Origin: Gammaproteobacteria bacterium
GTDB taxonomy: Bacteria; Pseudomonadota; Gammaproteobacteria; UBA6429; Thiohalophilaceae
Assembly (NCBI GenBank): GCA_030148325.1
Contig: JASBTR010000145.1
Coordinates: forward strand, 1,548-65,547
Direction: 5' to 3'
DNA: 64,000 nucleotides
Part shown: positions 526-52,423 of the stretch, piece after piece
How positions within the stretch are numbered: the first letter of the stretch is position 1
Layout of the letters: each line of letters opens with the position of its first letter
The notes under the pieces: model-generated
The model's input: the letters and a program-made list of their open reading frames with translations, nothing else
Databases searched by the model: none
Told to the model about the DNA's origin: nothing
Made by a program: the position numbers and the translations under genes

Positions 526-653
526 AACGCAAAGACGCGATGGCGCAAAGATCGTAAAGGACTTCCCTTGAAGTAACCAGTATATGTAGGGTGATGAGAT
601 GTTTACCTCCTTCATTTTAATTCAAATTTTTTGCGCCATCGCGTCTTTGCGTT
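526..653. repeat. Word-built palindrome, CGCARAG family: perfect 24-bp arms
   Basis: AACGCAAAGACGCGATGGCGCAAA (526..549) and its exact reverse complement (630..653), with an 80-nt spacer, just after the secA stop. Confidence 0.9.
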
Positions 654-5113: not shown

Positions 5114-5142
5114 GGTTAGCCTTCATATGGAAGGGGCGAGAT

Positions 5143-5308
5143 TAAACGCGGAGGACGCAGAGGCGCAGAGGCGCAGAGAAAAAAATTTATTTTGATAGTC
5201 ATTGATTCAACCTGTATTGATTATACACGGCAGCCTCAGGGAAAAAGGTAAATGCATTTGCAAATAAATTTATAAAACACCTTTGCGCCTCTGCGTCCTC
5301 CGCGTTTA
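5143..5308. repeat. Word-built palindrome, CGCAGAG family: ~25-bp arms
   Basis: TAAACGCGGAGGACGCAGAGGCGCA (5143..5167) pairs with 5284..5308. An extra GCGCAGAG tandem copy lies inside. Sits between coaE and pilD. Confidence 0.85.
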
Positions 5309-5333
5309 TCAAAATACTATCACAGTGGCTCGT

Positions 5334-6221
5334 TTAGGCGGCGATCCATTGCAGATAGGCATGATTGATAGCTTCACCCCAGAGCAGGGCAATCCAGCCT
5401 GCGGCGGCGAGGAAGGGGCCAAACGGGATGGGGATGCCGCGCTGGTGCTGGTTGCTGGCAATCAGCAGGATTCCAATGACGGCGCCAACAAGGGATGAGA
5501 GCAGGATAATCACGGGTAACATCTGCCAGCCCAGCCAGGCGCCGAGCATGGCCAGTAATTTAAAGTCACCAAAGCCCATGCCTTCTTTGCCGGTAAGTTG
5601 CTTGAACAGCATATAGACCGACCACAGGATCAGATAGCCGGCGGCTGCGCCGATTACGGCGGATTCCAGATCGGTAAATAGATTTTGCGTGTTGAGCAAC
5701 AGGCCAAGCCAGAGAAAGGGCAGGGTGATGGAGTCCGGCAGGTATTGTTCATCCAGATCGATGAAGGCCAGTGCAATCAGCGCCCAGCTCAGGAGGATGG
5801 CGAAGGCTGCCTCTGTGCTGACGCCAAAGCGCCATGCACAGGCCAGGCTTAAAATAGCTGTTAAAATTTCAATTGCAGGATAGCGCAGAGAGATCGCTGT
5901 TTTACACTCGGCGCAACGGCCACGCAAAAATAGATAGCTGATGATGGGGATGTTCTCCCAGACAGTAATGGCATGGCCACATTGCGGGCAGTGGGAGCGA
6001 GGCGTATTGAGGTTGAAGACCTGCGCGTCTTCTTTATTCTCAGGCTGGGCGCGGCCTTCTTCTTCGGCCAGGAAGGCCTGACATTCGGATTTCCAGCTTC
6101 TTTTGAGCATGACAGGCAGGCGGTAAATCACGACATTGAGAAAGCTGCCGACGATCAGTCCCAGCAGAAATGTAGTGAGATAATAAAACTCGGTATGTTG
6201 CTGGAATAATTCGTTCAGCAT
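5334..6221 (-). CDS. pilD: Prepilin leader peptidase / N-methyltransferase (A24 family)
   Basis: Zinc-binding CPQCGH...CAECK pair, polytopic membrane profile, immediately downstream of pilC. Confidence 0.9.
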   Translation of the reverse strand: MLNELFQQHTEFYYLTTFLLGLIVGSFLNVVIYRLPVMLKRSWKSECQAFLAEEEGRAQPENKEDAQVFNLNTPRSHCPQCGHAITVWENIPIISYLFLRGRCAECKTAISLRYPAIEILTAILSLACAWRFGVSTEAAFAILLSWALIALAFIDLDEQYLPDSITLPFLWLGLLLNTQNLFTDLESAVIGAAAGYLILWSVYMLFKQLTGKEGMGFGDFKLLAMLGAWLGWQMLPVIILLSSLVGAVIGILLIASNQHQRGIPIPFGPFLAAAGWIALLWGEAINHAYLQWIAA

Positions 6222-6238: not shown

Positions 6239-7462
6239 TTACCCGCCGACCACCTTACCCATCTGGAAGATAGGCATGTACATGGCAATTACCAGACCAC
6301 CGATTAAGACACCGAGGACTGCCATAATCAGGGGTTCCAGCAGACTACTCAGGCCATCCACGGCGTTATCGACCTCTTCTTCGTAGAAGTCAGCCACTTT
6401 GGAAAGCATGGTATCCATGGAGCCGGCCTCTTCGCCGATGGCGGTCATTTGCACGACCATGTTGGGGAACAGGTTAGCCTGTTTCATAGCGACGTTGAGC
6501 TGGGTGCCGGTAGAGACTTCATCACGCATGCGCAGGACGGCATCACTATAAACCACGTTACCTACTGCACCGGCTACAGACTCCATTGCTTCCACCAGAG
6601 GTACGCCGGCCGCGAACATGGTGGCCAAAGTGCGGGCATAGCGTGCAATCGCCGCCTTGCGCAGAATGGGGCCGATGATCGGTGCGTGTAACAGGGTTTT
6701 ATCGAGAAAGACATTAAAGCCTTTGGAGCGTTTCTTGGTCTGGAGCAAACCATAAACGGCCAGACCGATGGCTCCGAAGATTGCCCACCAGTAAGTCTGG
6801 AAGACTTTGGATAATTCAATCACAAATTTGGTTATAGCAGGCAGGTCAGCGCCAAAGCCGGAAAACAGGTCTTCAAACATGGGGATGACAAAGATTAGCA
6901 GGATAGTAGTGATAATAAAGGCCACGATCATAACCGCTGTGGGGTAGAACAGTGCTTTTTTAATTTTTCCCTTGATAGCCTCGGTTTTTTCCTTGTAGGT
7001 GGCAACCTTGTCGAGGATGCTGTCGAGGATACCGGCATGCTCACCAGCCTGTACCAGATTGCAGTACAGTTCATCAAATTGATAGGGGTGTTTTTTTAGC
7101 GAGTCAGAGAGATTGCTGCCGCTTTCGATATCCGTTTTAATGGTGGATAGTAATTCCTGCATGCCTTTGTTCTCATGGCCGCGGCCGATAATGTCAAAGG
7201 CCTGGACCAGGGGTACTCCTGAACTCATCATAGTGGCCAGTTGGCGACTGAAAATAGAGATATCTGCTGCCTTAACTTTCCTGCTGCCGCTGAACAGTGG
7301 CGTTGCTCTTTTCTTGACTTTAGTCGGGTTGATGCCCTGGCGGCGCAGATTGGCCTTAACCAGTGCAAGGCTGGGACTGCTTGTTTCACCCTTGACGACC
7401 TGCCCTTTGCTGTCCTTGCCTTCCCAGAGGAAGGTGCTTTTCTTTAATGCTTTTTCCGCCAT
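6239..7462 (-). CDS. pilC: Type IV pilus assembly platform protein PilC (GspF family)
   Basis: 407 aa with duplicated GspF-type domains and a C-terminal ...LIGGLVIAMYMPIF. Lies between pilB and pilD. Confidence 0.9.
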   Translation of the reverse strand: MAEKALKKSTFLWEGKDSKGQVVKGETSSPSLALVKANLRRQGINPTKVKKRATPLFSGSRKVKAADISIFSRQLATMMSSGVPLVQAFDIIGRGHENKGMQELLSTIKTDIESGSNLSDSLKKHPYQFDELYCNLVQAGEHAGILDSILDKVATYKEKTEAIKGKIKKALFYPTAVMIVAFIITTILLIFVIPMFEDLFSGFGADLPAITKFVIELSKVFQTYWWAIFGAIGLAVYGLLQTKKRSKGFNVFLDKTLLHAPIIGPILRKAAIARYARTLATMFAAGVPLVEAMESVAGAVGNVVYSDAVLRMRDEVSTGTQLNVAMKQANLFPNMVVQMTAIGEEAGSMDTMLSKVADFYEEEVDNAVDGLSSLLEPLIMAVLGVLIGGLVIAMYMPIFQMGKVVGG

Positions 7463-7573: not shown

Positions 7574-9322
7574 TCACTCTTTGGTAACCCGATTTAGTTC
7601 ATCGAGGCTGGTGACGCCGTTTTTCACTTTCAGCAGGCCTGACTGACGCAAATCCGGTATGCCTTCCTTTTGTGCCTGTTCTGCCAGTTCCATTGCATTG
7701 TTGCCTGCCATGATCATGCGTCCCATTTCTTCCGACAGAGGCATGACCTGATAGATACCGACACGCCCTTTATAACCATCGCTGCACTGGTCACAGCCTT
7801 TTGGACCATAAACTTTCAGTCCTTCGGCAACTTCTTTTTCAGCAAAACCCTCTTCCAGCAGGGCTTCCTTTGGAATGTCGAGTACCTGCTTGCATTCATT
7901 ACACAGACGTCGCGCCAGACGCTGGGCAATAATCAGGTTTACCGCAGAGGCGATGTTGTAGGGTGCTACGCCCATGTTGACCATGCGGGTCAGGGTTTGG
8001 GGGGCATCATTGGTATGCAGGGTGGATAATACCATGTGACCGGTCTGGGCGGCCTTGATAGCGATTTCGGCGGTTTCGATATCACGAATTTCGCCGACCA
8101 GAATAATGTCAGGATCCTGACGCAGGAAGGCACGCAGTGCGCTGGTGAAATCCAGTCCAACCTTGGGATTGACATTGACCTGGTTGACGCCGGCGAGGTT
8201 GATTTCCACTGGATCTTCGGCGGTGGAAATGTTGTTGTTCGGTATATTGAGGATATTGACACCGGTATAAAGTGTCACCGTCTTGCCGCTGCCGGTTGGT
8301 CCCGTAACCAGAAACATGCCATAGGGTTTGTGCAGCGCTTCGAGAAACAGTTCCTTTTGTTCTGGTTCAAAGCCCAGCGCATCCACGCCCAGTTTGGCGC
8401 TGTTGGGATCCAGGATGCGCAGCACGATTTTTTCCCCAAACAGGGTTGGGCAGGTGTTGACACGAAAATCGATGGCGCGATTTTTTGATAGATTCAGTTT
8501 GATTCGGCCATCCTGAGGCAGCCGACGTTCGGAAATATCCAGTCGTGACATAACCTTGAGTCGGGCTGACAGGCGTGGCGCCATATTAACAGGCGGCGCG
8601 GCTACTTCTTTTAGCACCCCGTCTATGCGGAAACGTACACGATAGTTTTTTTCATAGGGCTCAAAGTGAATATCAGAGGCCCCCTTGTTGATGGCATCGA
8701 GCAGCACCTTGTTGACAAAACGCACGACCGGAGTGTCATCCGCTTCAGATTCGGTGACAGCACCCTGGTCTTCTTCCTCATCAGCAAATTCGACATCATC
8801 GAGATCGGCATCTCCCAGCTCTGAAAGACTGGTATCGCTCTCTTCCATGGCCTTGTCGATAATGCGGCCGAGTTTATCATCCAGCACCAGGATGGGTTCG
8901 GTCGGGATGCCGACATGGAATTTGACTTCATCCAGTGCCTGCAGGTTGGTGGGGTCGGAAACAGCGATATACAGACGGTTGCCGCGCTTGAAAATGGGCA
9001 GGCTGCGATGCTTGCGGATCAGGTTTTCCTTGACCAGCTTGATGGTGTCGGGTTCGATGTTAATGCTGTCGATGTCAAACAGGGGCACGCCGAATTCTTC
9101 TGCAGCTGAGCGGGCAATGGTCTGGCTGTCCACAATTTTCTTGCTGACCAGGTGGGTTACAAAGGGGATTTTTTCCTTTTGCGCCGCTTTCTGGGCCGTC
9201 ATGGCCTGTTCATCACTGAGCATGCCATCGGCAATCAGGCGGCGTGCGAGACCGCCGAGGTGAACTTGAGTTGCAGGAGTTGCCATAATCTTGGTCAGTA
9301 TGTTCCAGTTTAATTCGCCCAA
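7574..9322 (-). CDS. pilB: Type IV pilus assembly ATPase PilB (GspE family)
   Basis: Walker A GPTGSGKT, Asp/His boxes, and the tetracysteine motif CNECK...CDQC. The track start is TTG; the ATG at about 9286 (MATPATQVHLGGLARRL) is more likely. Confidence 0.9.
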   Translation of the reverse strand: MGELNWNILTKIMATPATQVHLGGLARRLIADGMLSDEQAMTAQKAAQKEKIPFVTHLVSKKIVDSQTIARSAAEEFGVPLFDIDSINIEPDTIKLVKENLIRKHRSLPIFKRGNRLYIAVSDPTNLQALDEVKFHVGIPTEPILVLDDKLGRIIDKAMEESDTSLSELGDADLDDVEFADEEEDQGAVTESEADDTPVVRFVNKVLLDAINKGASDIHFEPYEKNYRVRFRIDGVLKEVAAPPVNMAPRLSARLKVMSRLDISERRLPQDGRIKLNLSKNRAIDFRVNTCPTLFGEKIVLRILDPNSAKLGVDALGFEPEQKELFLEALHKPYGMFLVTGPTGSGKTVTLYTGVNILNIPNNNISTAEDPVEINLAGVNQVNVNPKVGLDFTSALRAFLRQDPDIILVGEIRDIETAEIAIKAAQTGHMVLSTLHTNDAPQTLTRMVNMGVAPYNIASAVNLIIAQRLARRLCNECKQVLDIPKEALLEEGFAEKEVAEGLKVYGPKGCDQCSDGYKGRVGIYQVMPLSEEMGRMIMAGNNAMELAEQAQKEGIPDLRQSGLLKVKNGVTSLDELNRVTKE

Positions 9323-10018: not shown

Positions 10019-10502
10019 GTAGTGTCTCCTGGAGAAAAGGTTACTTTTTTAGTCTCATTGAGGTTGGCACAGGGTTTGTGCCCATGTGTAATCTCAATTT
10101 ACCTGTAGGAGCATATTTTGCTCGCGATCAGATATGCTGAATTTACCTTCAAGTTTAGCATCAGTTTGATTACAGTGTACTTTTTGGGCCTGAGAAAAGC
10201 TGAAAATCCGGTATTTGTGATTGATGTCCGGAACTGGAAAAAAGCCTGAAATTATCAGGGAAGATGCGGTAAGCTGGGAAGATGAATCACGGGTTTGGTT
10301 TTAGAATATTACCGTTGTCTAATATTTGTGATTTAACCGCCAGCTATTGAATATTTCCAGAAAATGCCGACAAGAACAGAGACCGCCGGGATCGGGGGCA
10401 AATTTGACTGGCGTCGCTGCATCGATATCTCTGCAGCGTCGCCACATTTGACCCCGGCCCCATGGAAACTATCGCGCAGAAACAGGTGGACCAGTTAAAC
10501 TT

Positions 10503-11445: not shown

Positions 11446-12384
11446 ATGAATACTGATATTCAACCCAGGGTCAATATTCTTCTGTCAACCTACAATGGTG
11501 AACAGTTTATCAGGGCGCAGTTGGATAGTCTGTTTGCCCAGACCTATTCAAATATCCTTGTTCATATAAGGGATGATGGATCAGTAGATAGCACAGTTGA
11601 TTTGATCCGTGCCTGCACCAACAGAAAGATCCCCGTTATTCTGACCGAAGGTGAAAACATCGGGGTTATCCCGAGTTTTATGCAACTTCTAGGCAATGTC
11701 TGCAGGACAGGTGAACTGTATGCCTTCTGCGATCAGGATGATGTCTGGAGGCCAGAAAAAGTGTCCCGTGCAGTTGAACAGATTATGCAACGCCCCCAGC
11801 CTGAGAAGGTGCTGTATTGCACAAGGCTGGAATATGTCGATGAACGCTTGAATCATCTTGGTTATTCCTTGAACCCCCGGGCTATTGGTTTCAGAAATGC
11901 AGTAGTGGAAAATATTGCGACTGGATGCACAGTTGTATTTGGTGAACGTATCCGTCAGTGGATACTGGAAGGTGATCCTGCTGATATGATGATGCATGAC
12001 TGGTGGGCCTATCTGGTTGCTTCTGCTTTTGGTGAAGTTGTTTATGATAACTTCCCGTCTATTCAGTATCGCCAGCACGGAAATACTGTGACTGCATGGG
12101 AACCGGGACTGGTGAAAATCAGGGCTCGCGCGCATGGATTGATCAGGCGATTGAAAATGCGAGAGCATACAGGACTTGATTCACTGAACCAGGCTATTCG
12201 TTTTGTTGAAACTTATCCAAATGTCCCGGTGGATATGAAAAGAATCGTAGCGCGTCTGGTGGCGCTTCGTGGAAAGAATAAATTTTGGCAGAGAGTGCGT
12301 TACATTATGTATCCAGAAGTATTGCGAACTAATCCGGTGGAGAACTGGTCACTGAAACCCATGATCCTTTTGGGATGGCATTAA
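11446..12384 (+). CDS. GT2 family glycosyltransferase
   Basis: NILLSTYNGEQFIRAQLDSLFAQTY...RDDGSVDST...CDQDDVW (GT-A fold, DxD). Confidence 0.75.
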   Translation: MNTDIQPRVNILLSTYNGEQFIRAQLDSLFAQTYSNILVHIRDDGSVDSTVDLIRACTNRKIPVILTEGENIGVIPSFMQLLGNVCRTGELYAFCDQDDVWRPEKVSRAVEQIMQRPQPEKVLYCTRLEYVDERLNHLGYSLNPRAIGFRNAVVENIATGCTVVFGERIRQWILEGDPADMMMHDWWAYLVASAFGEVVYDNFPSIQYRQHGNTVTAWEPGLVKIRARAHGLIRRLKMREHTGLDSLNQAIRFVETYPNVPVDMKRIVARLVALRGKNKFWQRVRYIMYPEVLRTNPVENWSLKPMILLGWH

Positions 12385-13526
12385 TTATCATGAAGTAGCT
12401 TTTTAAGTCGAGATTGTACAATTTGATTGGACAATCGTTCCTCGTAAAATCTCCGACTGTTTTGCGCGAGCTGGCTACGACGTTCCGGGGAATTAGCCAG
12501 CAGCATGATTTTTTCAGCAAGTGCAGCACCATCGTTGACAGGCACGGTTTCAAATGGTGAATAGGAAAGCCTATCCTTTGTCTGTAGGCTCCATGATGTT
12601 TCACCGGTAATAATGGCGCGGCCACAGGCCGCATAGGCATACAGTTTCAGGGGGCAGACACGTTGGGTTTTTTTACCTGCACCAAAGATGCCCAGGCAGA
12701 TATCGGCTTTGGATATCATTTCCGAAAGCTTCTCTGCAGGTTGCCATTCCCTGATCCACTCCAGATTGATCGCATCATTTCTAATGGCTGACTCCATTAC
12801 TACTGCTGTTTGCCCGTCTCCCACGATGCGGAAGTGTACATGTTGTTCGTTTTGCAGTCTGCTTGCAGCTTTCAGGATTGCAGTTATCCCATGTAGAGGA
12901 ATGAATGTGCCAATGAATAGAATGGTGCATTCCCTTCCTGGAGTGTAGTCGATTTGTCGGAAATGTTGTTCATCGGTTGATAACGGGATGTCGTATACTT
13001 TATTTGCTGGCAGATTGAATTCTCTGAAAAGGAAAGAGGCGCTTTGAGGCGTGTCAACTAGTATGAGGTCGGCGGAAAAGTAGGCTCTTTTTTCGATTTT
13101 TTTCAGGGTGATGGCAATCCAGTTTTGTGAAGATAGTAGTTTTCGATCATTAACAATAGTGTCGTAAAGTGAAATAAACGCATCGAGTACAATTTTGTCC
13201 GGTCTTGCCTTGCGAGGAAGAATACCGATGATGAACCCCATAAAAACGGAAGGATAAGGAATATAGAGCAGGTGGGTCGGTCCATGAAAAAGATATTTAA
13301 GCGTGACTGAAAAATGGGAATAAATGGCACGCAATAATCTCGGGATGAGGTGTTCTTTTAGTGAATGTGAATGAATCTTCATTTTCCACATCGGAACATT
13401 TATTTCAGTCACATTTATCCATTTCGCATTTTTTAACTCCTGGATTCTGTAACGCACGTTGGGGTAGCCGGATGATTTAAGATGTACGCCTAAAATCAGC
13501 AGCTTGGTTTTATTGTCTGATTTCAT
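12381..13526 (-). CDS. GT-B fold glycosyltransferase (GT1/GT4-like)
   Basis: C-terminal GT-B region (...LGIFGAGKKTQRVCPLKLYAYAACGRAIITGET). Its stop overlaps the stop of the converging GT2 within a TTAA. Confidence 0.65.
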   Translation of the reverse strand: MKSDNKTKLLILGVHLKSSGYPNVRYRIQELKNAKWINVTEINVPMWKMKIHSHSLKEHLIPRLLRAIYSHFSVTLKYLFHGPTHLLYIPYPSVFMGFIIGILPRKARPDKIVLDAFISLYDTIVNDRKLLSSQNWIAITLKKIEKRAYFSADLILVDTPQSASFLFREFNLPANKVYDIPLSTDEQHFRQIDYTPGRECTILFIGTFIPLHGITAILKAASRLQNEQHVHFRIVGDGQTAVVMESAIRNDAINLEWIREWQPAEKLSEMISKADICLGIFGAGKKTQRVCPLKLYAYAACGRAIITGETSWSLQTKDRLSYSPFETVPVNDGAALAEKIMLLANSPERRSQLAQNSRRFYEERLSNQIVQSRLKKLLHDN

Positions 13527-14418
13527 CAGCAGATTGTTCCATAGGACCCATTTTGTTTTTTATAGCATCAGTAATACCGCAAAAAAATGCAAAGGCTTTA
13601 TTTTTCTTGTTATCTTCAATGAACACAATCGAGACGAGTTCAATGCTCAGCCTGGCAAGTTGAAGGAAGCTCCACACCGGCTCACGCAGCCAGTATTGCT
13701 TTATCGTCAAAATGGTATTTCGCGCCATATAGTATTTTCGAAAGGCCGGATGTTCAAACGTGATAATTGGCTTTTTGGTGGAATCGGCTTGCCCAATAGT
13801 ATGAGACATAATGATTTTACAGCTCATGGCAATTGGTAAACCCTGGGATCGTATTCTGAGGCAATATTCGTGGTCGATGGAATCGATAAAATAATCTTCC
13901 CTGAAACCGCCAATATTTATGTACAGGGACAGATTCAGTAATGTACCTGATGTGATGACAGTTCGCCGTTTTATGAAAAGTTTTCCAGATTTCTGATTAC
14001 ATTTCTTAAATGGACGCTTTCTGGAATTGTCATAGTAGTTGCTTCCTAAAATAAGAAAAGTGCCATTGCCTGACACATATATGGATGCGAGTATAGAAAA
14101 TATATCAGGGTGAACAGTTGTATCCTGATCAAATATCAATATCCATTCATATCCAGATTCGATGGCAAGTGAAGCTGCCTGATTTAACGCCTTTCCGAGT
14201 CCCATATTTTTGTTGTTTTCAATAAGTGTTATCTCGGGAGCTTTGGAGAAATTACGCAATATAGATAGGCAGTGTATACTGGAAGCATTGTCAACTATAA
14301 TAATAGAGTGCACCTGTTCCTGAATTTTAGCAAGTCGATGTATGATGTCATCATCAGGAAAATAGGTGACAATCACCGCACAGGTGTTTTTTATGGAAGG
14401 GAACATTGATATTTCCAT
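13510..14418 (-). CDS. GT2 family glycosyltransferase (rhamnosyltransferase-like)
   Basis: CAVIVTYFPD...IIIVDNAS...FDQDT motifs. Overlaps the downstream GT-B gene by 17 nt, suggesting coupled translation. Confidence 0.7.
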   Translation of the reverse strand: MEISMFPSIKNTCAVIVTYFPDDDIIHRLAKIQEQVHSIIIVDNASSIHCLSILRNFSKAPEITLIENNKNMGLGKALNQAASLAIESGYEWILIFDQDTTVHPDIFSILASIYVSGNGTFLILGSNYYDNSRKRPFKKCNQKSGKLFIKRRTVITSGTLLNLSLYINIGGFREDYFIDSIDHEYCLRIRSQGLPIAMSCKIIMSHTIGQADSTKKPIITFEHPAFRKYYMARNTILTIKQYWLREPVWSFLQLARLSIELVSIVFIEDNKKNKAFAFFCGITDAIKNKMGPMEQSADEIRQ

Positions 14419-14548
14419 TCAAGTGACCTGGTTGTTATAGGGGTTGTCCATCTCATATTTTCGTTACGGGTAGAAAATGTACGATATGCCACTTTTTAAA
14501 CTGTATCTACAAAAAATTCCTAATATAGTTATTCGCTCTACCTTAATT

Positions 14549-16276
14549 TTATGATTTTATCACCCTTAGCATCTTACGCTTAATGTTAAGCAGGTATGAA
14601 TATACTCCAAAGCCCATAAGTTGATTTCTGATATAGAAATGAGCCTTCTTCTCTGAATAACCATGAACCAACTTTTCTATTCCTGCCTCTATATGCAGAA
14701 ACTGTTTGAAATCATTGTTTGATAATTTAATTCCCAGTGTTGCCGCAATGCGACGAATTCTGCTAACACGTCGTCCTCTTGCGAATATGGGTTCAACTCC
14801 TGTCATTGATTGTATGCCTTCCAGAAAGTGATATATTGTGCGAACAAGTAAGACTGATACGGGAATCGGTTTATGCCAAATCAATTCAGCATCAATATAG
14901 TAACAAACACCATTACTAATAATTACATTCTGCCATATGCAGTCAATAAATTTTCCGTCTACTATAAGAATGCCATTTTCCATTGAACTCTGGGTATGAA
15001 TATAATCGAGCCATTGTCCAGCTTCATAAAATACATCTATTTTTTCATAGCGGCGATGCAAAATTTTTCTGGCAACCAAACTGTGAACTGATTCTCCTTG
15101 CCGCCAGGGGTCCTTTAATGAACAAATACTCAATGCCTCTCTGGAATTAGAAGGTGCTGGGTGTATGACCCGTTTTTCTACAAAGATCTTCTTACCATTA
15201 TCTTCAATAATGTGAGTCAAGGTCTGGAAGTTGTGTGATCTGTCTGTACCATACAAAATTCCAAGCTGGTTAAAATGAACAAATTTGCTGCTGTTACTAC
15301 CAGCCATAATCAAAAATGAATTTGCAAAAAATGGTAACATATTATTTCTTGCCAGGGCCTTGTTTGCCAATGACTCATTGAAAAGGGGATTTTTTTCCTT
15401 CAGATAGTCCCGTGATTCAATTCGGCTAATTAGCTCACTGGCATCTACGCGTGAAAATAATTGTTCTGATAATACACAATCCGGAATTTTGTAATCTGGG
15501 TACGGAAAGTAAAACAGGACATCGCTGAAATATGGTTGCAAACGGGATTTAATTTCGTGGTATCCAAAGGTTCTTGCTCCATCCTTCAAATGTGGATAAT
15601 CTTCGATACCATCGAACATAAACTGACTGTGATCTTCTGAACAGGAGCTAAAATATTTCAGACCAAATTGGTTCTCAATTGCGAGAAGTAATACGCCTTC
15701 TTTATTTAGAAGCGAGCGGAAATACTGAAGGATGTTGTCATAGGGGTCTTCAGCATTGACAAAAGTGTTGGAATATTCGAATACACCTATACAGAAAATA
15801 AGATCAAATTTTTCGTTGAATGAGATTTCCTGAAAAGGTGCACTAAGGATTGAAACATTCTCAAGATCAGCAGTTCTCCTGCGTGCCAGCTTTGCGCGGG
15901 TAAAACTACCTTCTATAGAAATGACTTGATCAAATGTTTCACCCAGAAAACGGGTAATAGCACCACAGCCACAACCCACTTCGAGTACTCTGGCCTGCCT
16001 GTTATATGTAAACCCATTTAAGAGCTGACTTCGGCGGTGTGATAGATGGTATTCGCTGGGCCAATCCCTTATATATTGTTTCAGTTCACTTGAAGATGAA
16101 CTGACGTCGGTTACTTTTGAAAAAACTTTTTCCAGATACCGCTCATGTACCTGGCCATCAGAGTACTGGATATTCTGGCCATCAGACAGGCGCCATACGC
16201 CACTTGGATCCAGTGTTATTTCGTTGTTAATTATTCGTTTCACAAAAACACCTGTAAGAAATAACATGTACCACAA
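14549..16276 (-). CDS. Class I SAM methyltransferase fused to a C-terminal kinase-like domain (WbdD-like architecture)
   Basis: SAM motif I VLEVGCGCGAITRFL in the N-terminal third. The C-terminal part has a protein-kinase/APH-like catalytic pattern (FIDCIWQNVII...YYIDAE). Confidence 0.6.
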   Translation of the reverse strand: MWYMLFLTGVFVKRIINNEITLDPSGVWRLSDGQNIQYSDGQVHERYLEKVFSKVTDVSSSSSELKQYIRDWPSEYHLSHRRSQLLNGFTYNRQARVLEVGCGCGAITRFLGETFDQVISIEGSFTRAKLARRRTADLENVSILSAPFQEISFNEKFDLIFCIGVFEYSNTFVNAEDPYDNILQYFRSLLNKEGVLLLAIENQFGLKYFSSCSEDHSQFMFDGIEDYPHLKDGARTFGYHEIKSRLQPYFSDVLFYFPYPDYKIPDCVLSEQLFSRVDASELISRIESRDYLKEKNPLFNESLANKALARNNMLPFFANSFLIMAGSNSSKFVHFNQLGILYGTDRSHNFQTLTHIIEDNGKKIFVEKRVIHPAPSNSREALSICSLKDPWRQGESVHSLVARKILHRRYEKIDVFYEAGQWLDYIHTQSSMENGILIVDGKFIDCIWQNVIISNGVCYYIDAELIWHKPIPVSVLLVRTIYHFLEGIQSMTGVEPIFARGRRVSRIRRIAATLGIKLSNNDFKQFLHIEAGIEKLVHGYSEKKAHFYIRNQLMGFGVYSYLLNIKRKMLRVIKS

Positions 16277-16279
16277 TCA

Positions 16280-17575
16280 TTAGCAACGGAGCCGTAGTGC
16301 GGCAAAATAGGCCAAAAAGAACGTGCTAATACTTACGCGAATCACCCATGCAAAGGCAGCGCCATCTATACCGTATTCTGCAACTAGTAAAGGAAGGTAT
16401 GCAAGAAATAGTGGAAGTTCAAACATATGAAGCTTGGCAGTAATATCTGGTCGACCTGATGCTTGAACCAGAGCCTGGGACACCAGGCCCAGACTGTTAA
16501 TAAAAACACCTATAGCAAGTAATCGTACTACCTGCTGGCTCTGTGAGGCAAAGGAGGCATCTATCCAGTAAGTAAGTCCCTCATTGGCATAAAATACTAT
16601 TAAGATAACGAATGGCATGAGAAGCATTACAATAACAGCTAAACACTGTTTGTAAATCCGTGCTGCTTTTTGCATATTTTTTGCATATAGAAAACTAAAG
16701 GCAGGAAACATTACACCGATTACTGCAGCCGGGATTATCAACAGCTTGGTAACTATGTCATAAGGGGTTGCATAATAACTAACCGCATCCAGTGACAGCA
16801 TGGTTCCGACCAGAAAGCGGTCAGAGTAAAGCAAGATTGGGCCAACTATGTTACTTATGGTAATCCATCCTCCAAAGGCAAGTATTGGCCTGAGCATGTT
16901 TTTATTGAATGTTGCAGGCTTTCTCTTCAAATCCTGGATGCCGGTAAAACACAAAACAACGTACACCACCCAGGCGACTATTCGTACGGCTACCATCACC
17001 CCAATGACCGCGACCAGGCTGTCTTCGAAATGCAATGCTATTAGCGGCCCAAGATAGGTGAAAACACCAGTCGGAATCTTTATTAGATTGATAGTAGTAA
17101 AACGTTGGTAGGCTTCCAGCAAACCGCGCAGCCCAGCTGTCGTCATTATTACAGGAATGGCTGCTCCAAGGAGCTGGAATGCCTTGATGGTTTCGTCCTG
17201 GATGGACTCAGGGACGGACAGAAGCTCTTTTATCAACCATGGTGTGAGAAAAATTACTAGCAGGCTGAATACTAAGCTTAATGCTCCCATCATAGAAAGT
17301 GCTGTCCAAACCAGCCCAGAAATCTCATCGTGTTTCCTGTTACCCAGAAGCTCGGCTACCAGTTTTGTTAACGCGCGCCCTACGCCCATGTCGAATAAAC
17401 TGAAATACCCAATTAATACAGATGCCAGAACTAATACGCCAAAGCGTTCCAGACCGAGACCTTCAATAAGTAGAGGGATCGCGAACAGGGCGACCAGCAA
17501 GGGAAGACCACTCCCGACAAGATTCAGAATCGTGTTTTTTACAAGAAGCTTACGTGCAATTAGTGATTGGGACAT
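16280..17575 (-). CDS. wzx: Wzx-type polysaccharide flippase (MOP superfamily)
   Basis: 431 aa, about 12 hydrophobic segments, N-terminal pattern typical of polysaccharide biosynthesis/flippase proteins. Confidence 0.75.
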   Translation of the reverse strand: MSQSLIARKLLVKNTILNLVGSGLPLLVALFAIPLLIEGLGLERFGVLVLASVLIGYFSLFDMGVGRALTKLVAELLGNRKHDEISGLVWTALSMMGALSLVFSLLVIFLTPWLIKELLSVPESIQDETIKAFQLLGAAIPVIMTTAGLRGLLEAYQRFTTINLIKIPTGVFTYLGPLIALHFEDSLVAVIGVMVAVRIVAWVVYVVLCFTGIQDLKRKPATFNKNMLRPILAFGGWITISNIVGPILLYSDRFLVGTMLSLDAVSYYATPYDIVTKLLIIPAAVIGVMFPAFSFLYAKNMQKAARIYKQCLAVIVMLLMPFVILIVFYANEGLTYWIDASFASQSQQVVRLLAIGVFINSLGLVSQALVQASGRPDITAKLHMFELPLFLAYLPLLVAEYGIDGAAFAWVIRVSISTFFLAYFAALRLRC

Positions 17576-17680
17576 GGAAAACTACTCAGGATGTTGGCAT
17601 GGTTTCTTAAGCAAATGTCTATAGCCATGACTTGACCCTGCTACTCTCCAGCCTAAATTGGCATTCCAATGTGCCATGGT

Positions 17681-19362
17681 TAGTGTCCGTCCATAAACAT
17701 GGATAATTTAAAATAAAACGCCTTTATGAATGCTTTCATTTTGCAGTTATTTAAAATTCTGGAGGGCATTTTTTGTTGCGGACCCACAAAATAGTCCTAC
17801 GAAATGTCAAAACGCATTTTTTTTGCATAATAACCCCTGAGCCCTCAAGCTCGCATGCGCTATTACCTCTGCCTTTCTTAAGTGGTGACTCGCCTGGCGA
17901 AAGTCGCTAGATTGTGTGCAACCACGGAAGACCACACGTAACGCTTGAAGTGCTCAAGACCTTTCCACGTACAACGCGCCAATCCATAAGCACGTTTGAG
18001 ACAAGAGATACCCGCCTCGATCCCTGCGCGAAAATTGCGTAACTGCCGATACACCCACGGGCTCTTAACCATATCTTCGATTTTTATTCCGCGTTTTTTA
18101 TGAAAAGTAACCTCTTCAACACCACGTGATTTTGCTTCTTTAAGATTGTCTTTACTCGCATAACCACCATCGACAGCAACTTGTCGTGGCGCGCATCCAT
18201 AATTCTCTATGTGTCGATCCAACATAGGCAGAAAGCGATCCGTGTCAGCAGGGTTACCTTCTTCAATCACGACATCAAGAATCAATCCGCTTTTGCTGGA
18301 ACTGAGATTAAGCTTGCGACCATACTGGATGTCACGACTGCCTTTTATGATAATATCGGTGTGTGTTTCAAAAATACTGAATATTTTTTCGCTGGCAGGC
18401 ACCATTTCATTATTGAATACTCGACGCTCTGTTTGGCTGATAACCTGTAGAATCAGGGGAATATAATGCGCAACTTCACTTTCCCATCCCATTTGCTGCA
18501 ATGCATCAACGGGGGCTTTATTTAAAGCAATTTTGGCCTGTTCAAGATAGTTTATTGTCTGCCGGGTTACGTCGATTAAGTCACGATACAGCCTGGCTTT
18601 TTTATCTTTTGGGCGGGTATAGGCTATCGCGCGCGCGCGTTTTTTTGCCACTCGCCGATGATTGCGAAAAGCAATCCTGGGCGCACCGTTGAGCGATTGC
18701 GCCTGTTCAAGTAAACGTATCATGATCCGGAACCATCCCATAACAAGCTGCTGTCAGTCGGTTCATGTATCATTACCTCCGTCACCGTGCTATCCATGCG
18801 CACCTTTTTCCCTGATTCGACTTTCTTTTGTTTTGCCTCTTTTAGCAAACACTGATTAATGCGCTCCCAGGTGTCCCCCTTGATCAGGCTGATTGTTTTT
18901 TGTAGCACAGACTTCTGAGGAAAAATTTTAGCCGGTAAACGCGCGAACGCTTGAAAAGAGGCTGAGTCAGATAAATGAAAAGCGAGTTCCTGATAGTTTA
19001 ATTGCCGATATTGTTTGAGTATTGCGCAGCGTAATATGGATTCAGCAGACAATCCATTTCGACCTGTGCCAAACACATCTTTTATGTGCAAATCCATGGC
19101 TATCCAATCCATTATTTCACGATGTTGATCTAATTGTTCTGACATGCCTTTAAGTTCTTTTCCGATCTCGTGATTTGAGAAAAAATCGAATATACTAACT
19201 TGGTCGATGCACTTTTTTCGCATTGTCGCCACCGGTGGTTTTTGTTTTTTCTTATATTTCAATTGCTTGAGAATAGGATAACAAAAATCACCGGAACTTT
19301 CACTTCTCAAATCAGCTGTTTTTTCATTAAATTCAAGTTGTTAGCGTTTATGGACGGACACT
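17681..19362 (-). mobile_element. IS element (IS5/IS1182-like) with 18-bp perfect terminal inverted repeats
   Basis: TAGTGTCCGTCCATAAAC at 17681..17698 and its exact reverse complement at 19345..19362 bracket the two transposase ORFs. Confidence 0.85.
17878..19310 (-). pseudogene. DDE transposase split by a frameshift (ORFs 18720..19310 and 17878..18741)
   Basis: The N-terminal ORF ends ...IHEPTDSSLLWDGSGS*. The second ORF continues in another frame (GWFRIMIRLLEQ...) with the DDE region. The 22-nt overlap is consistent with a 1-nt indel or programmed frameshift. Confidence 0.75.
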
Positions 19363-19400
19363 AGCTTATAAGTGTCATACCAAGTTTGAATGGTTTTGCC

Positions 19401-27583: not shown

Positions 27584-27715
27584 ACCACAGAGGACACGGA
27601 GGTCACAGAGTTTGAAAATATGTGCTTTTCTGATTCTCCCGTGAGAATGGGAACCAATATAAAATCACAAAATGCTGGAAATATAATTCTCTGTGACCTC
27701 CGTGTCCTCTGTGGT
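27584..27715. repeat. Word-built palindrome, CACAGAG family: perfect 27-bp arms
   Basis: ACCACAGAGGACACGGAGGTCACAGAG (27584..27610) and its exact reverse complement (27689..27715), between pgeF and rluD. Confidence 0.9.
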
Positions 27716-27741
27716 GCAAATCATTTTTCTTCCAGGTTGTG

Positions 27742-27775
27742 CAGGTTGGGCAGAGCAACGCGAAGCCCAACCTAC
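27742..27775. repeat. GTTGGGC...GCCCAACCTAC hairpin module overlapping the rluD stop
   Basis: AGGTTGGGCAGAGCAACGCGAAGCCCAACCTAC. Related copies at 52161..52244, about 52314..52355 and about 58813..58830. Confidence 0.7.
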
Positions 27776-28731: not shown

Positions 28732-28841
28732 ATCAGGTGAATTTTTTCTCAGCCAGGTTGAGTTAGGCGTTCATTATACCCGCTATCAACGGTATACTCT
28801 CGACAGGTCCCATTTTCTTTTGTTACTGCATCCGGAATCCC

Positions 28842-29600
28842 ATGTTACGTCTTTTCCCTGTTCTTGTTTTTTTACTGTTTCTCAGCGCCTGCGCCACGGT
28901 GGAGGATGAAGATCCTACCGAGGGGCAGACGGCGGCGGAGGTCTATCGCGATGCCCGTGAATATCTTGATGAAGGCGAATATGAGAGCGCCATCGAGTAT
29001 TATGAACGGCTGGAGTCGCGTTTCCCGTACGGCCCCTATGCGGAACAGGCGCAACTGGAGATCGCCTATACCTACTATCAGGCACAGGAATATGAATCCG
29101 CCATCCTCGCCGCTGAGCGTTTTATCAAGCTCCACCCGGATCACCGCAGTATTGCTTATGCTTATTATTTGCGCGGCCTGGCGCGTTATAACGGCGATCA
29201 GTCGTTTATGGCGCGCTGGTTTAATCAGAATCTGAGCGAGCGCGATCCCAGGTCCATGCGTGAAGCCTTCCGCTATTTCTCTGAACTGGTGACGCGTTTC
29301 CCCGACAGCCGTTATACAAAGGATGCGATTCGCCGGATGCGCCAGCTACGTGATGGTCTGGCGAAATATGAGATGCATGTAGCGAACTATTATGCCCGGC
29401 GCAGCGCTTTTGTTGCTGCTGCCAATCGCGCCAAATATGTCGTGAAACATTATCAGGGGACGTCGGCTGTACCCGAGGCGCTGGCGATTATGGTGAAATC
29501 CTATACTGAGCTGGATTTGCCGGTGCTGGCGCGGGATGCAAGGCGAGTGCTGGAGATGAATTATCCGGAATATCAGGGACGAGGGATGAGTGACGAGTGA
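28842..29600 (+). CDS. bamD: Outer membrane protein assembly factor BamD (lipoprotein, TPR)
   Basis: Lipobox LFLSAC and TPR-like repeats, divergent from rluD. The last residues (GRGMSDE*) lie in a heptamer repeat array. Confidence 0.85.
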   Translation: MLRLFPVLVFLLFLSACATVEDEDPTEGQTAAEVYRDAREYLDEGEYESAIEYYERLESRFPYGPYAEQAQLEIAYTYYQAQEYESAILAAERFIKLHPDHRSIAYAYYLRGLARYNGDQSFMARWFNQNLSERDPRSMREAFRYFSELVTRFPDSRYTKDAIRRMRQLRDGLAKYEMHVANYYARRSAFVAAANRAKYVVKHYQGTSAVPEALAIMVKSYTELDLPVLARDARRVLEMNYPEYQGRGMSDE

Positions 29601-29721
29601 CGAGGGACGAGGGACGAGGGACGAATCAAGCTTAAACAACTATTTCAATCAATCAATCAATCAATAATAATTGAACCACCCGCCTGTTTTCCTCGCCCCT
29701 CGCCCCTCGTCCCTCGTCCCT
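29578..29721. repeat. Heptamer-array palindrome: (GACGAGG/GACGAGT)n arm and (CCTCGYC)n arm
   Basis: Left array 29578..29624 and right array 29691..29721, between convergent bamD and glnB. Confidence 0.9.
29645..29665. repeat. (TCAA)5 tetranucleotide microsatellite in the loop of the heptamer palindrome
   Basis: tcaatcaatcaatcaatcaat read directly. Confidence 0.85.
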
Positions 29722-29726
29722 ATGTT

Positions 29727-30252
<526 letters not shown>

Positions 30253-30322
30253 CCAGCGTAAAGTCTCTGTCCACAGGTGCCATGATTGTCTATTTTTCGT
30301 TAATTTTCAACAGTCTTAAGTT

Positions 30323-31978: not shown

Positions 31979-32083
31979 TATTTCAGGCCTGATTGATTGT
32001 TATTTATTTACCACAGAGATGTCTTTGCAGGATACGGTTTCAGTTTGTAATTAGTATTGAACCGCAGCAAGCTACGGGGTTGT

Positions 32084-32955
<872 letters not shown>

Positions 32956-32956
<1 letters not shown>

Positions 32957-34146: not shown

Positions 34147-34194
34147 ATTATCGACGTTAAGCTCAGCTTGCTGAAAAGCGGTATTGTGGAGCAA

Positions 34195-34277: not shown

Positions 34278-34304
34278 AAATAGTTTAAATTACAGAGAAA
34301 ATTC

Positions 34305-34559: not shown

Positions 34560-34574
34560 GTTCATCGGCTGAAT

Positions 34575-36206: not shown

Positions 36207-36230
36207 CAGGAAAGATAACGAGATTTCAGA

Positions 36231-37605: not shown

Positions 37606-37828
37606 AACGCAAAGACGCAAAGACAGCAAAGGAGTTCTTAATCTTTATGGGTTTAATTTCCCATAGCTTGCTGTGATTAATATTAACCACCAGGACGCAA
37701 AGGACGCCAAGTTTTAGCCAAACAATTCCTGGCGTCCTTTGCGTCCTGGTGGTTCAGATTGTTCCTTCGACTAATACCCCGTAGCTTGCGGCGGGGTTGT
37801 TTATTTAAATACTTTGCGTCTTTGCATT
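37606..37828. repeat. Nested composite: outer CGCAAAG arms enclosing shared modules and a 27-bp-arm hairpin (37685..37754)
   Basis: Outer AACGCAAAGACGCAAAG / CTTTGCGTCTTTGCATT. Inner AACCACCAGGACGCAAAGGACGCCAAG-loop-CCTGGCGTCCTTTGCGTCCTGGTGGTT. Confidence 0.85.
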
Positions 37829-39240: not shown

Positions 39241-39385
39241 TAAACGCAGAGGGCGCAGAGGTGCGGAGACGCAGAGATTGTATGATTTTGATTATAAAAC
39301 TTTTTTCTTTGCACCTCAGGGGCACTTTCTCACTTTGTTCGGGCGCGTCTTCGCGTTATGTATCCACGTTTATGGATAGACACTA
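39241..39385. repeat. Degenerate CGCAGAG palindrome (loop homologous to 30156..30196) ending in an IS-terminus-like 25-mer
   Basis: TAAACGCAGAGGGCGCAGAGGTGCGGAGACGCAGAG then a loop AGATTGTATGATTTTGATTATAAAAC.. . TATCCACGTTTATGGATAGACACTA (39361..39385) matches the reverse complement of the IS left end at 22/25. Confidence 0.7.
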
Positions 39386-39389
39386 GATA

Positions 39390-39890: not shown

Positions 39891-39950
39891 AAATCACAAA
39901 AAAGGGAAAAGATGCAAGCAAGAAGATATAAGGTGAAAAAAGGGGGCTGT

Positions 39951-39981
39951 TCCTCGCCCCTCGTCCCTCGTCACTCGTCCC
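39951..39981. repeat. (CCTCGYC)n heptamer array upstream of the acyltransferase gene
   Basis: CCTCGCCCCTCGTCCCTCGTCACTCGTCCCT. Confidence 0.85.
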
Positions 39982-40000
39982 TTTCAGCCGGCTTATCCCA

Positions 40001-40684
40001 ATGCTGATTGCAGCAAGCACGGTCTTTATTTTTTTTCTCTCCCTTGTGTGGGCTGGCTTTCACGCCAATGAAGCTGACTGGGGACGGCCGTGGCTGAATC
40101 TGCTGGATGGCTGGATTCGCCTGTTTCTAAAATATTATCACCGCTATCAGTACAGCCCGGTGATGCTACCCAGACAGGGGGCGGCGTTACTGGCGGGGAA
40201 TCATGTATCCGGCCTGGATCCGCTGTTGCTGATCGCCGCCTGTCGGCGTCCGGTGCGTTTCATGATTGCGCGGGAAGAATACGAACGCTTCGGTCTGCGC
40301 TGGTTTTTTCGCGCCGGCGGCTGTATTCCGGTGGAGCGTAGCGGCAAACCCGAAAAGGCGTTTCGTGATGCGCTGACGGCGCTGAAAAAGGGTGAGGTGG
40401 TGGGTATTTTCCCGGAAGGTGCTATCCATCTTTCCACTCACCCACCCCGACATCTAAAACGGGGGGTGGCGGTGCTGGCTGAACTGAGCGGCGCGCCGGT
40501 TTATCCGGTCCAGGTGAGTGGCATTGCCGGCGAAGGCCATGTCATTCTTGCCCTGCTTAAGCGTGGCCACGCTCGACTACGGGCTTTTCCGCCACTGAAT
40601 TGCGCAGCGCTGGGGCAGTCAACCTGCCTCGAACAACTGGGGCAGCTATTAAGAGCAAAGGAACGAGTGACGAGTGACGAGTGA
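40001..40684 (+). CDS. Lysophospholipid/1-acyl-sn-glycerol-3-phosphate acyltransferase family protein
   Basis: NHVSGLDP (HX4D) and FPEG motifs. The C-terminal ..VTSDE* is encoded by a GACGAGT heptamer array. Confidence 0.75.
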   Translation: MLIAASTVFIFFLSLVWAGFHANEADWGRPWLNLLDGWIRLFLKYYHRYQYSPVMLPRQGAALLAGNHVSGLDPLLLIAACRRPVRFMIAREEYERFGLRWFFRAGGCIPVERSGKPEKAFRDALTALKKGEVVGIFPEGAIHLSTHPPRHLKRGVAVLAELSGAPVYPVQVSGIAGEGHVILALLKRGHARLRAFPPLNCAALGQSTCLEQLGQLLRAKERVTSDE

Positions 40685-40689
40685 CGAGT
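40663..40689. repeat. (GACGAGT)n heptamer array forming the acyltransferase 3' end; inverted partner of 39951..39981
   Basis: ACGAGTGACGAGTGACGAGTGACGAGT contains the TGA stop at 40682..40684. Confidence 0.85.
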
Positions 40690-45251: not shown

Positions 45252-45488
45252 AACGCAAAGGCGCGAAGGCGCAAAGGACGCAAAGAATATTAAATTTAAT
45301 TAAAATAAATGACCCCGCCGCAAGCGGACGGGGTATTAAATCGTAGGAGCGAGCTTGCTCGCGAATGCGGTTGGATGAACCTCAAACTATTCGCGGGCAA
45401 GCCCGCTCCTACCGGTTTTAGCCGCAAGCAGCGGGGAATTTAACCCATAGAGATTCAAAAACTCTTTGCGCCTCTGCGTCTTTGCGTT
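45252..45488. repeat. Nested composite: outer CGCAAAG arms enclosing a Pseudomonas-type REP pair and shared flank modules (45313..45455)
   Basis: Outer AACGCAAAGGCGCGAAGGCGCAAAGGACGCAAAG / CTCTTTGCGCCTCTGCGTCTTTGCGTT. Inner GTAGGAGCGAGCTTGCTCGCGAAT ... ATTCGCGGGCAAGCCCGCTCCTAC. Confidence 0.85.
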
Positions 45489-46113: not shown

Positions 46114-46210
46114 AGTACGTCAGTATTTAACCGTTTGTTTTTGTGCGGAAATCATACCGGAAAAAACAGGGAATGTAAGGGGGTGTTCGAGTTTGTCCAA
46201 CGGAAATGTT

Positions 46211-46349
46211 AACCACAAGGACACGGAGGTCACAGAGAAGACTATTTAATCCTAAGACAACTGACTCTTTATCCAGATCATCACAGATGACACACAACTC
46301 TGATTTTAAAATATATGAAACCTCTGTGACCTTCCGTGTCCTTGTGGTT
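46211..46349. repeat. Word-built palindrome, CACAGAG family, second copy
   Basis: AACCACAAGGACACGGAGGTCACAGAG (46211..46237) pairs with CTCTGTGACCTTCCGTGTCCTTGTGGTT (46322..46349; 1-nt bulge). Confidence 0.9.
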
Positions 46350-46426
46350 AAATTTTTTAGGGAACTGCATGCTTTTGCATGTGTCACAGGGTTAATATTT
46401 ACTTTGATATATTCTAAGTCGAAAAG

Positions 46427-50087: not shown

Positions 50088-50092
50088 GAAAA

Positions 50093-50181
50093 GTGACGAG
50101 TGACAAGGGACGAGTGGCGAGGAAAAACATCGGGTAGCCTGTACTTATTTCCTCGTCCCTCGTCCCTCGTCCCTCGTCACT
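50093..50181. repeat. Heptamer-array palindrome between convergent soxB and hemH
   Basis: GTGACGAGTGACAAGGGACGAGTGGCGAGG (50093..50122) pairs with CCTCGTCCCTCGTCCCTCGTCCCTCGTCACT (50151..50181). Confidence 0.9.
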
Positions 50182-52244: not shown

Positions 52245-52360
52245 TTTATGGAGACCGCCTCTGGAAAAAGCTGCGCCGGTTAATATTATGCAAGCGCAAT
52301 AAGGTGGCAGCCTGGGTTGTTTGTTGGACTTCGTTTTACTTTAGCACAACGAATCAGGAT

Positions 52361-52419
52361 TGAGTGGCGAGGATAGAAAAGCAGGACTATGCTTTTGTCG
52401 TCCCTCGTCCCTCGTCCCT
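52361..52419. repeat. Heptamer-array hairpin immediately 3' of ettA (possible terminator)
   Basis: TGAGTGGCGAGGA ... AAAAGCAGGACTATGCTTTT ... GTCGTCCCTCGTCCCTCGTCCCT. Confidence 0.75.
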
Positions 52420-52423
52420 TTAA

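Follow-up and report, generated by a model that had tools for sequence, protein, structure and literature searches.

Introduction

Foldback (FB) transposons of Drosophila and other eukaryotes carry long inverted arms composed of a variable number of short tandem subrepeats; the loop is non-coding in most copies and holds genes in a few. [quoted passage not shown] In this study, we analysed a 64,000-nt stretch of a Gammaproteobacteria bacterium of the Thiohalophilaceae (assembly GCA_030148325.1, contig JASBTR010000145.1, positions 1,548 to 65,547; hereafter the window), in which intergenic palindromes such as the one at 526-653 (E1) have arms built from short tandem words. The arms share their word grammar and polarity with arrays that tightly flank genes of the GxxExxY family of small, predicted PD-(D/E)XK nucleases. 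From these sequence comparisons we are inclined, on balance, to regard the window palindromes as gene-less, non-autonomous MITE- or REPIN-like copies of GxxExxY cassette arms, with the array-open reading frame (ORF)-array unit behaving as an inserted cassette.

The kinds that come nearest are MITEs with their parent insertion sequences and REPINs with their RAYT gene. Like MITEs, the word palindromes are short, multi-copy units of 70-240 nt that lie between genes, are non-coding and end in terminal inverted repeats. They also form subfamilies with conserved cores, are present or absent between relatives, occur nested, and have a gene-bearing form with the same ends. In contrast to MITEs, they gave no sign of a target-site duplication, their ends consist of tandem 7-9-nt words variable in letters and number, the loops hold no gene remnant, and the linked gene encodes a 125-aa PD-(D/E)XK core and not a DDE, HUH, serine or tyrosine transposase. 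The REPIN-RAYT system likewise combines many intergenic palindromes with a small gene of nuclease type that has these repeats, inversely oriented, on its two sides; in both, the hairpin form is probably recognised and compensatory changes occur. However, a REP is a single imperfect palindrome of 20-40 nt that bears a GTAG or CGTC tag, and RAYT belongs to the Y1 HUH enzymes, whereas here the arms are non-palindromic word arrays and the gene, often present in many copies, is of the PD-(D/E)XK type. An assignment to REP or bacterial interspersed mosaic elements was therefore rejected, the arms being non-palindromic word arrays that lack both tags. Foldback transposons differ from the word palindromes in being eukaryotic, in their much longer arms and in their unrelated proteins.

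The attC sites are also palindromes of variable sequence that bracket small genes, and some word palindromes end in ...AAC / GTT.... An attC arm, however, consists of two 7-8-bp boxes, the cores RYYYAAC/GTTRRRY fit only few window copies, and the word palindromes come with neither an integrase nor a cassette array. They were rejected as attC sites, since their ends fit the cores loosely, they are scattered among housekeeping genes and no integrase lies near. Intergenic tandem words of 7 nt with a scattered phylogenetic distribution are known as the STRR heptamers of cyanobacteria and the TAACTGA direct repeats of Beggiatoaceae (MacGregor, 2015; PMC4679880). These differ in being direct arrays, mostly just upstream of start codons, with one inverted case in 170 sets and no nuclease gene linked (MacGregor, 2015). 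Paired tandem sites were described by Aklujkar et al. (2009; PMC2700814) in Geobacter metallireducens, as 'predicted global regulator binding sites' of classes 1-4. Each site consists of 3-5 tandem octanucleotide or heptanucleotide repeats, with dozens per genome, all intergenic; 24, 21 and 8 pairs of sites lie on opposite strands at variable distance, and binding by IHF/HU was conjectured. The class 2 word TCTCCGTS[Y] is the complement of ACGGAGA-type words. Unlike the arrays described here, the Geobacter sites are given only as supplementary alignments, are read as IHF/HU sites and have no gene linked to them. They likely belong to the same family as the window arms, a comparison made by consensus description. 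This paper was the sole earlier notice of word palindromes that we found, and literature searches with the word strings gave nothing relevant, most subscription journals being outside the coverage.

Results

Palindromes in the window

An earlier note on the window had listed six palindromes with arms of 8-9-nt words (E1 to E6, Table 1), all of them intergenic. Direct reading of the six places, together with an independent inverted-repeat search, confirmed them, and the list was incomplete, as the 64 kb hold at least 15 elements of four word types. The two-word motif CGCRRAGRNGCRNAG occurs 12 times in the window (0.02 expected from shuffles), and there are nine centres of perfect inverted repeats (16 nt or longer, arms within 400 nt), against 0.23 in Markov resamples. 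The palindromes all lie between ORFs, in tandem, convergent and divergent contexts, and many start 17-60 nt past a stop codon or overlap one. Folded as single-stranded RNA, they reach z-scores between -9 and -11. In every element the purine-rich array leads; since the elements are palindromic, this is true on both strands. The spacers had been described as mostly unrelated and 41 to about 180 nt long. They measure 39-187 nt, and those of E3 (30130) and E4 (39241) are in fact related, this spacer being multi-copy in the source metagenome.

A gathering scan of the whole window against Rfam 15 gave no match. Intrinsic terminators were considered and rejected, as most copies have loops of 39-187 nt, a T-run before the stem and an A-run after it; a terminator scan of 27000-46999 picked up none of the word palindromes.

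A word grammar common to many phyla

As the earlier note had proposed, the arms share a word grammar, (N)N-C-R-C-R-R-A-G, and not one fixed sequence. The idea of a local product of structure alone was not supported: the words collapse to a consensus common to many phyla. A scan of one genome per species with ACGCRRAG-N1-2-CGCRRAG-N1-3-GCRRAG matched at least 120 loci in more than ten phyla, including Acidobacteriota, Planctomycetota, Chloroflexota, Cyanobacteria, Bacteroidota and Verrucomicrobiota, and, among the loci listed, also Alpha-, Beta-, Gamma- and Deltaproteobacteria. Plus-strand and minus-strand matches are often close together. The order of the arrays is polar (purine-rich first in 63 pairs versus 12 in reverse), and arms mostly start with T-run/YA-CGC and finish with GCG-TR/A-run. 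Polarity and start motif are as expected of defined element ends and not of a generic stem. Spacers form a continuous range from 8 to about 440 nt and are unrelated in content. Palindromes of different word types also occur nested, as at one locus (L009, 5130-5420) where GGTTGTC arrays flank CGCGGAG arrays. Arrays of the 7-mer GGGACGA were absent from the fetched loci, so that no partner gene was found for the 7-mer word type of the window.

GxxExxY genes between the arrays

The ORFs of the 120 scanned loci were clustered. Besides common housekeeping families, one small family lay directly against arrays, in three phyla (L025, L031, L036), and was identified as GxxExxY (TIGR04256, 138 bits; PF13366, PDDEXK_3, 136 bits). 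A RAYT/IS200-like partner had been suggested for the palindromes; the associated gene instead encodes a predicted PD-(D/E)XK nuclease. The gene of about 375 nt encodes 125 aa with a RecB/Cas4-like core. An AlphaFold2 model computed from 24 homologues had a pLDDT (predicted local distance difference test) of 94.8, and the closest solved structures were Cas4 SSO0001 (E 4e-4, template modelling score 0.55), lambda exonuclease, LHK-Exo, RecE and the AdnAB nuclease. D69, E79-x-K81 and Q93xxxY97 are invariant, which we take to be the RecB/Cas4-type active-site motifs. A search of the PDB by sequence gave no significant match, and neither did phage genomes (INPHARED). The GxxExxY/PDDEXK_3 family is very large, with at least 7997 clusters, and bears no annotation beyond the name of its motif. 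A survey of the superfamily lists the function of PF13366 as 'Unknown', with members in prokaryotes and viruses and multiple transfers. The literature found on GxxExxY consisted of this survey and incidental mentions, and no paper was found that links the family to repeats, most subscription journals lying outside the coverage.

The best 80 of at least 582 metagenome relatives were taken, with a query from the array-linked genes. Among the 70 genes with enough flank, an array was present within 150 nt in 68 and on both sides in 57. The ORF lies in the loop, between an array and its complementary array, in 32 of the 70; the reverse order was seen in 14. Arrays end 1-40 nt from the ORF. In total, 298 kb of GxxExxY loci contain 227 arrays, against 7 in shuffles, and as a control arrays within 60 nt on both sides were found for 50 of 76 GxxExxY genes versus 4 of 178 other ORFs of the same loci. 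Between cassette copies at different loci, nucleotide homology extends over the ORF plus some 30-50 nt of either flank and ends where the arrays have their outer ends. The gene-less form has the same ends and is far more numerous than the gene-bearing one. In gene-bearing copies the last purine-rich word (GGAGG, AGAGG or AAAGG) stands a few nt before the ATG; speculatively, it may be a ribosome-binding site that is masked by pairing with the other arm.

Autonomous elements with arms 0.6-4 kb apart were not found in the 120 genome loci, and the only other cargo between arrays were ordinary genes between separate palindromes. One candidate for a long autonomous element, in an alphaproteobacterial metagenome-assembled genome (L110), was rejected as merely nuoK-nuoJ between two reverse-order hairpins; these pyrimidine-first word hairpins (6600-6670 and 7775-7835) lie on either side of the two genes inside the nuo operon. 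Another locus (L036, 3440-4820) is densely packed, with at least eight arrays in 1.4 kb that surround a GxxExxY gene as well as small ORFs of toxin-antitoxin-like type. Distant GxxExxY genes of Prevotella nigrescens (L210), a Fusobacteria bacterium (L213) and Treponema (L211) are flanked by repeats of other types: ACAAATNG words in direct arrays, a 25-nt direct repeat, or an inverted repeat of only 11 nt and simple form. Bracketing by repeats seems to be general to the GxxExxY family, with the type of repeat differing by subfamily.

Cassette arms in the window, and filled and empty sites

A hidden Markov model (HMM) was built solely from 87 arms flanking GxxExxY genes. When run on the window, 10 of its 11 matches fell on reported palindromes, the best on both E6 arms (E 2.5e-4 and 1.2e-3), followed by the right arm of E3 (E 2.3e-3); E2 matched with E 0.03. 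E1-E6 and B1-B2 are built like cassette arms, with at least three tandem 8-9-nt words C-R-C-N-N-A-G, a YA-CGC start after a T-run, and the purine-rich array 5'. In Bacteroides finegoldii, a GxxExxY gene between radA and a FAD-dependent gene has the left arm TTCACCACAGAGGACGCAGAGGACACGGAGG and the right arm, reverse-complemented, TTTTTTCACCACAGAGGACACAGAGGTCACAGAG; the latter nearly matches window positions 27580-27610, TTTTACCACAGAGGACACGGAGGTCACAGAG, an arm of B1. As inverted tandem-word arms are shared with GxxExxY cassettes, the window copies look like MITE-like relatives of a mobile cassette, of which we found no earlier description.

Filled and empty sites were observed for both forms. 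In Sphingomonas parapaucimobilis a cassette is located between fabD and fabG, inside the fab operon, with the layout TTTTTT-CACGCGAAG-GCGCGAGG-ACGCGAAG-ATG...ORF...CATCGCGT-CTTCGCGG-CTTCGCGTGAA. At the same position S. paeninsulae has only about 30 nt and no cassette, a pair too diverged for exact ends or a duplication to be read. For the window palindromes, a relative of about 80% identity in the metagenome has 16 nt in place of 5115-5339 (the E2 stretch), and related populations skip 30084-30273 (the E3 stretch). Variants of the E3 spacer occur in several metagenome contigs. In the source metagenomes the arm sequence is 20-100x deeper than its flanks and contigs break at arms; contigs were matched at 85-88% likeness, at which orthologous variants and paralogous arm copies are not separable, because the shared grammar alone gives about 88% identity. 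The E1 arm region is about 8-100x deeper than its spacer in metagenome contigs, and D1 arms have a depth of about 3000 against about 32 in the flanks (run X1), the spacers of both elements being single-copy.

Agreement between the two arms

The earlier note described each copy as perfectly or almost perfectly self-complementary. This applies to three or four of its six copies; the right arms of E4 and E5 have decayed (Table 1). Among all window elements, four to five have arms that are near-perfect in themselves and unlike those of the others. E1, E2, E3 and B1 agree with their own partner arm in 24-25 of 25 positions and with arms of other copies in 13-22. The claim that no two copies share an arm is therefore correct inside the window, and it does not extend beyond it, given the depth of arm-like sequence in the source metagenomes. 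Two cases of compensated change stand out. The odd word of E1, ACGCGATG at 535-542, is mirrored in the right arm by CATCGCGT, its exact complement. The composite repeats at 37640-37800 and 54190-54350 (about 170 nt) are 83% identical, with conserved flanks GATTAATATT ... CAGATnGTTCCTTCGAnTAATACCC around a word hairpin (C1 and C2); the hairpin arms show five differences, four of which are concordant in both arms, one of the four being a transversion. Independent mutation does not account for such concordance, which requires either arm-to-arm copying or selection for pairing.

Arms that vary and are yet internally compensated, the pattern emphasised in the note, are thus found in some window copies and are not general in the wider family. 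In 158 array pairs, the two arms of an element match on average at 19-20.5 of 24 positions, and no more than 21% of the pairs score 23 or higher; in a same-locus comparison the self score of 18.7 was barely above the cross score of 17.8. Four copies in one Pyrinomonadales locus (L034) share a core of about 100 nt and have uncompensated arm differences. This comes close to the decaying consensus family, with uncompensated mismatches, that the note had contrasted with its own view. At two loci (L007, L116) the words within one arm are alike and unlike those of the other arm, which points to slippage or conversion inside arrays. Correction of quasipalindromes by intrastrand template switching is a known mutational process.

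Elements and other repeats of the window

The word palindromes and the solo array are collected in Table 1.

Table 1. Word palindromes and related arrays of the window (positions in nt; z, z-score of the single-strand RNA fold).
Element	Position	Strand	Words	Arms and their agreement	Spacer	Fold z	Remarks
E1	526..653		CGCRRAG type; AACGCAAAG-ACGCGATG-GCGCAAAG	526-549 and 630-653, 24/24	80 nt	-8.9	Between secA 3' end and argJ; fold -61.6 kcal/mol
E2	5143..5308		Four words in left arm	5143-5178 and 5280-5308; 28/29 over 5143-5171/5280-5308	~100-108 nt		
E3	30125..30227		Extra word at 30188	30125-30156 and 30196-30227, 30/32; 25/25 over outer 25 nt	39 nt	-9.7	
E4	39241..39357		Four words in left arm	Left 39241-39276 intact, right 39307-39357 decayed; self score ~13/25			
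E5	37606..37828			Outer arms 37606-37631 and 37812-37828; left intact, right decayed; self score 19/25			C1 nested in loop
E6	45252..45488			45252-45285 and 45463-45488; 22/25 over 45252-45276/45464-45488			REP doublet in loop; right end overlaps stop codon of minus-strand gene 45487-46113
B1	27584..27715		CACRGAG; ACCACAGAG-GACACGGAG-GTCACAGAG	27/27	78 nt	-10.8	
B2	46204..46356		CACRGAG	Self score 23/25 with 1-nt indel			First word unlike that of B1, in both arms
C1	37679..37760		AACCACCAG-GACGCAAAG-GACGCCAAG	31 nt, 94%		-10.9	Short-loop hairpin; inside ~170-nt composite repeat nested in E5 loop
C2	54228..54301			34 nt, 91%			Short-loop hairpin; C1 homologue with same flanks
D1	29575..29721		7-mers (GGGACGA)n ... 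(TCGTCCC)n				Overlaps 3' end of gene 28842-29600
D2	50092..50178		7-mers			-9.2	Between convergent genes; Tandem Repeats Finder (TRF) arrays
D3	39905..39985		7-mers	Left arm decayed			
D4	52340..52420		7-mers	Decayed			
Solo 7-mer array	40663..40689	+	(ACGAGTG) x 3.9				At 3' end of gene 40001-40684

The loop of D1 contains a (CAAT)5 tetranucleotide microsatellite at 29646-29668, the length of which could vary by slippage. Several further repeats accompany the word palindromes. GTAG-tagged, Pseudomonas-REP-like sequences GTAGGAGCGAGCTTGCTCGCGAA form REPIN-like inverted doublets at 45335-45415, 60820-60900 and 10100-10130, the first of these being nested in the E6 loop. A second small hairpin family, GGGCACGATTTTTGTGCCCA, often preceded by GTAGG, is present at 2945-2966, 40893-40915 and 10064-10085, and a third family, TGTTGGGCTTCG...CCCAACCTAC, is found beside or between word palindromes at 27735-27775, 52155-52245 and 58795-58830. 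Terminator-like hairpins ACCCCG..GCTTGCGGCGGGGT with a T-rich tail lie in the loops of E5 (37776-37797, plus strand) and E6 (45334-45312, minus strand). Outside the word grammar, the arms of a perfect 19-nt inverted repeat, AGGGTCTGTTGATCTTTCA, are located at 58910-58928 and 59052-59070 with a 123-nt spacer. The block 12000-28000 has a lower G+C content (0.40-0.44 versus 0.49-0.56 elsewhere) and may be an acquired island; it holds a single word palindrome, B1, at its edge.

Discussion

The shared grammar and polarity, the tight association of gene and arms and the homology blocks that end with the arrays, together with filled and empty sites, multi-copy arms and compensated changes in some copies, led us to favour gene-less relatives of the GxxExxY cassette as the reading of the window palindromes. 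A mechanism can be sketched. A nuclease supplied in trans would recognise the periodic arms, probably folded into a hairpin or cruciform, and could thereby drive the copying or homing of array-bounded units. Reading of a periodic motif on a folded arm would explain why letter changes are tolerated and the grammar is kept. Intrastrand template switching or arm-to-arm conversion may keep the arms of young copies alike, word arrays potentially being reshuffled by slippage as well. Any effect on host mRNA through stable hairpins just past stop codons would then be secondary. More tentatively, GxxExxY proteins might be the predicted nucleases of an undescribed class of mobile or homing cassettes: they would cut at the word motif of a hairpin or cruciform, the cassette or the gene-less arm pair would be copied to new intergenic sites, templated repair from arm to arm would keep every copy self-complementary, and the gene-less palindromes in their thousands, those of the window included, would form a REPIN-like population. 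We regard this full scheme as possible and somewhat doubtful.

Several observations weigh against a cassette origin of the palindromes. Neither the window nor 41 gene-less spacers from elsewhere contain a GxxExxY remnant, and the window has no GxxExxY ORF; therefore, a descent of gene-less from gene-bearing copies is putative, and the source genome may lack the gene. In Bacteroides, many strains and species have the cassette fixed at a single locus, with no visible mobility there. Target-site duplications were not observed: the flanks show no direct repeats, and the inverted repeat goes on into them (TTTTYA...TRAAAA). It often extends outward by a variable length, a feature equally consistent with element ends and with insertion into hairpins that were already there. 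Furthermore, the 80 metagenome loci are the best matches to an array-linked query and thus a biased sample, and the flanks of more distant GxxExxY genes carry repeats of another kind or no repeats. Fourteen genes have the reverse array order, and some genes are found between two complete short palindromes, so that the gene could be a guest that targets palindromes and not their owner.

Such a guest is the basis of an alternative in which the palindromes are host RNA elements, i.e. mRNA-stabilising or RNase III-processed hairpins or cistron insulators kept by selection for pairing, and GxxExxY genes are independent selfish genes homing into these hairpins or next to them. The very stable folds (z -9 to -11), the many copies 17-60 nt past a stop codon or overlapping one, the location inside housekeeping operons (nuo, fab) without breaking them and the compensated arm changes would all suit such a role, as would the genes in reverse array order or between complete palindromes and the variable outward reach of the inverted repeat. 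However, a mere stem does not need the 63 versus 12 polarity of the arrays, arms are often mismatched across the family, loop length varies between 8 and more than 400 nt and loop content is unrelated, and copies are missing from close relatives and hence dispensable. With their T-run before and A-run after the stem they are not intrinsic terminators either, and they have no Rfam match. Altogether, we consider a host RNA function unlikely. Binding of a host protein, a global regulator or an IHF/HU-like protein, is the explanation that was put forward for G. metallireducens. In that genome, paired tandem sites lie on opposite strands at variable distance, the complement of TCTCCGTS[Y] x 3 resembles the window word GACACGGAG, and the distance of ISGme8 and ISGme9 to some of the sites is fixed (PMC2700814). 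A periodic motif with conserved polarity would also suit a protein array. Yet the Geobacter proposal is itself a conjecture, a period of 8-9 bp does not keep phase with the DNA helix, and the linked gene encodes a predicted nuclease, no regulator gene being linked. Moreover, the arrays occupy every intergenic context, including between convergent genes, and differ in presence between relatives; arrays of host binding sites therefore seem improbable to us.

A last alternative, in line with the structure-based mechanism of the earlier note, is a purely local origin, in which slippage makes the arrays and hairpin-templated repair mirrors them in the absence of any mobile element. The note was right that compensated arms exist, as the E1 word and C1/C2 demonstrate, and the within-arm likeness of words in L007 and L116 shows that slippage or conversion occurs in the arrays. 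What it missed is the link to the arms of a nuclease-gene cassette. More than ten phyla have these words, the start motif and the polarity in common, copies in one genome share conserved spacers, and the arms are tightly linked to one gene family; common descent of copies is already indicated for E3/E4, C1/C2 and L034. A local origin is thus very hard to reconcile with the data, and we give it little credence.

Returning to the cassette relationship, there is a fair chance that the palindromes mark a new class of mobile element. The link to a repeat found across phyla gives the GxxExxY family a testable role, and it would account for intergenic palindromes that annotators have noted, and left unexplained, since 2009 or earlier. 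Should the nuclease indeed read a periodic motif on a folded arm, this would represent a new mode of recognising element ends and a tractable system for the joint evolution of palindrome arms. Elements of this kind within operons and after stop codons break metagenome assemblies, and their masking or annotation is advisable.

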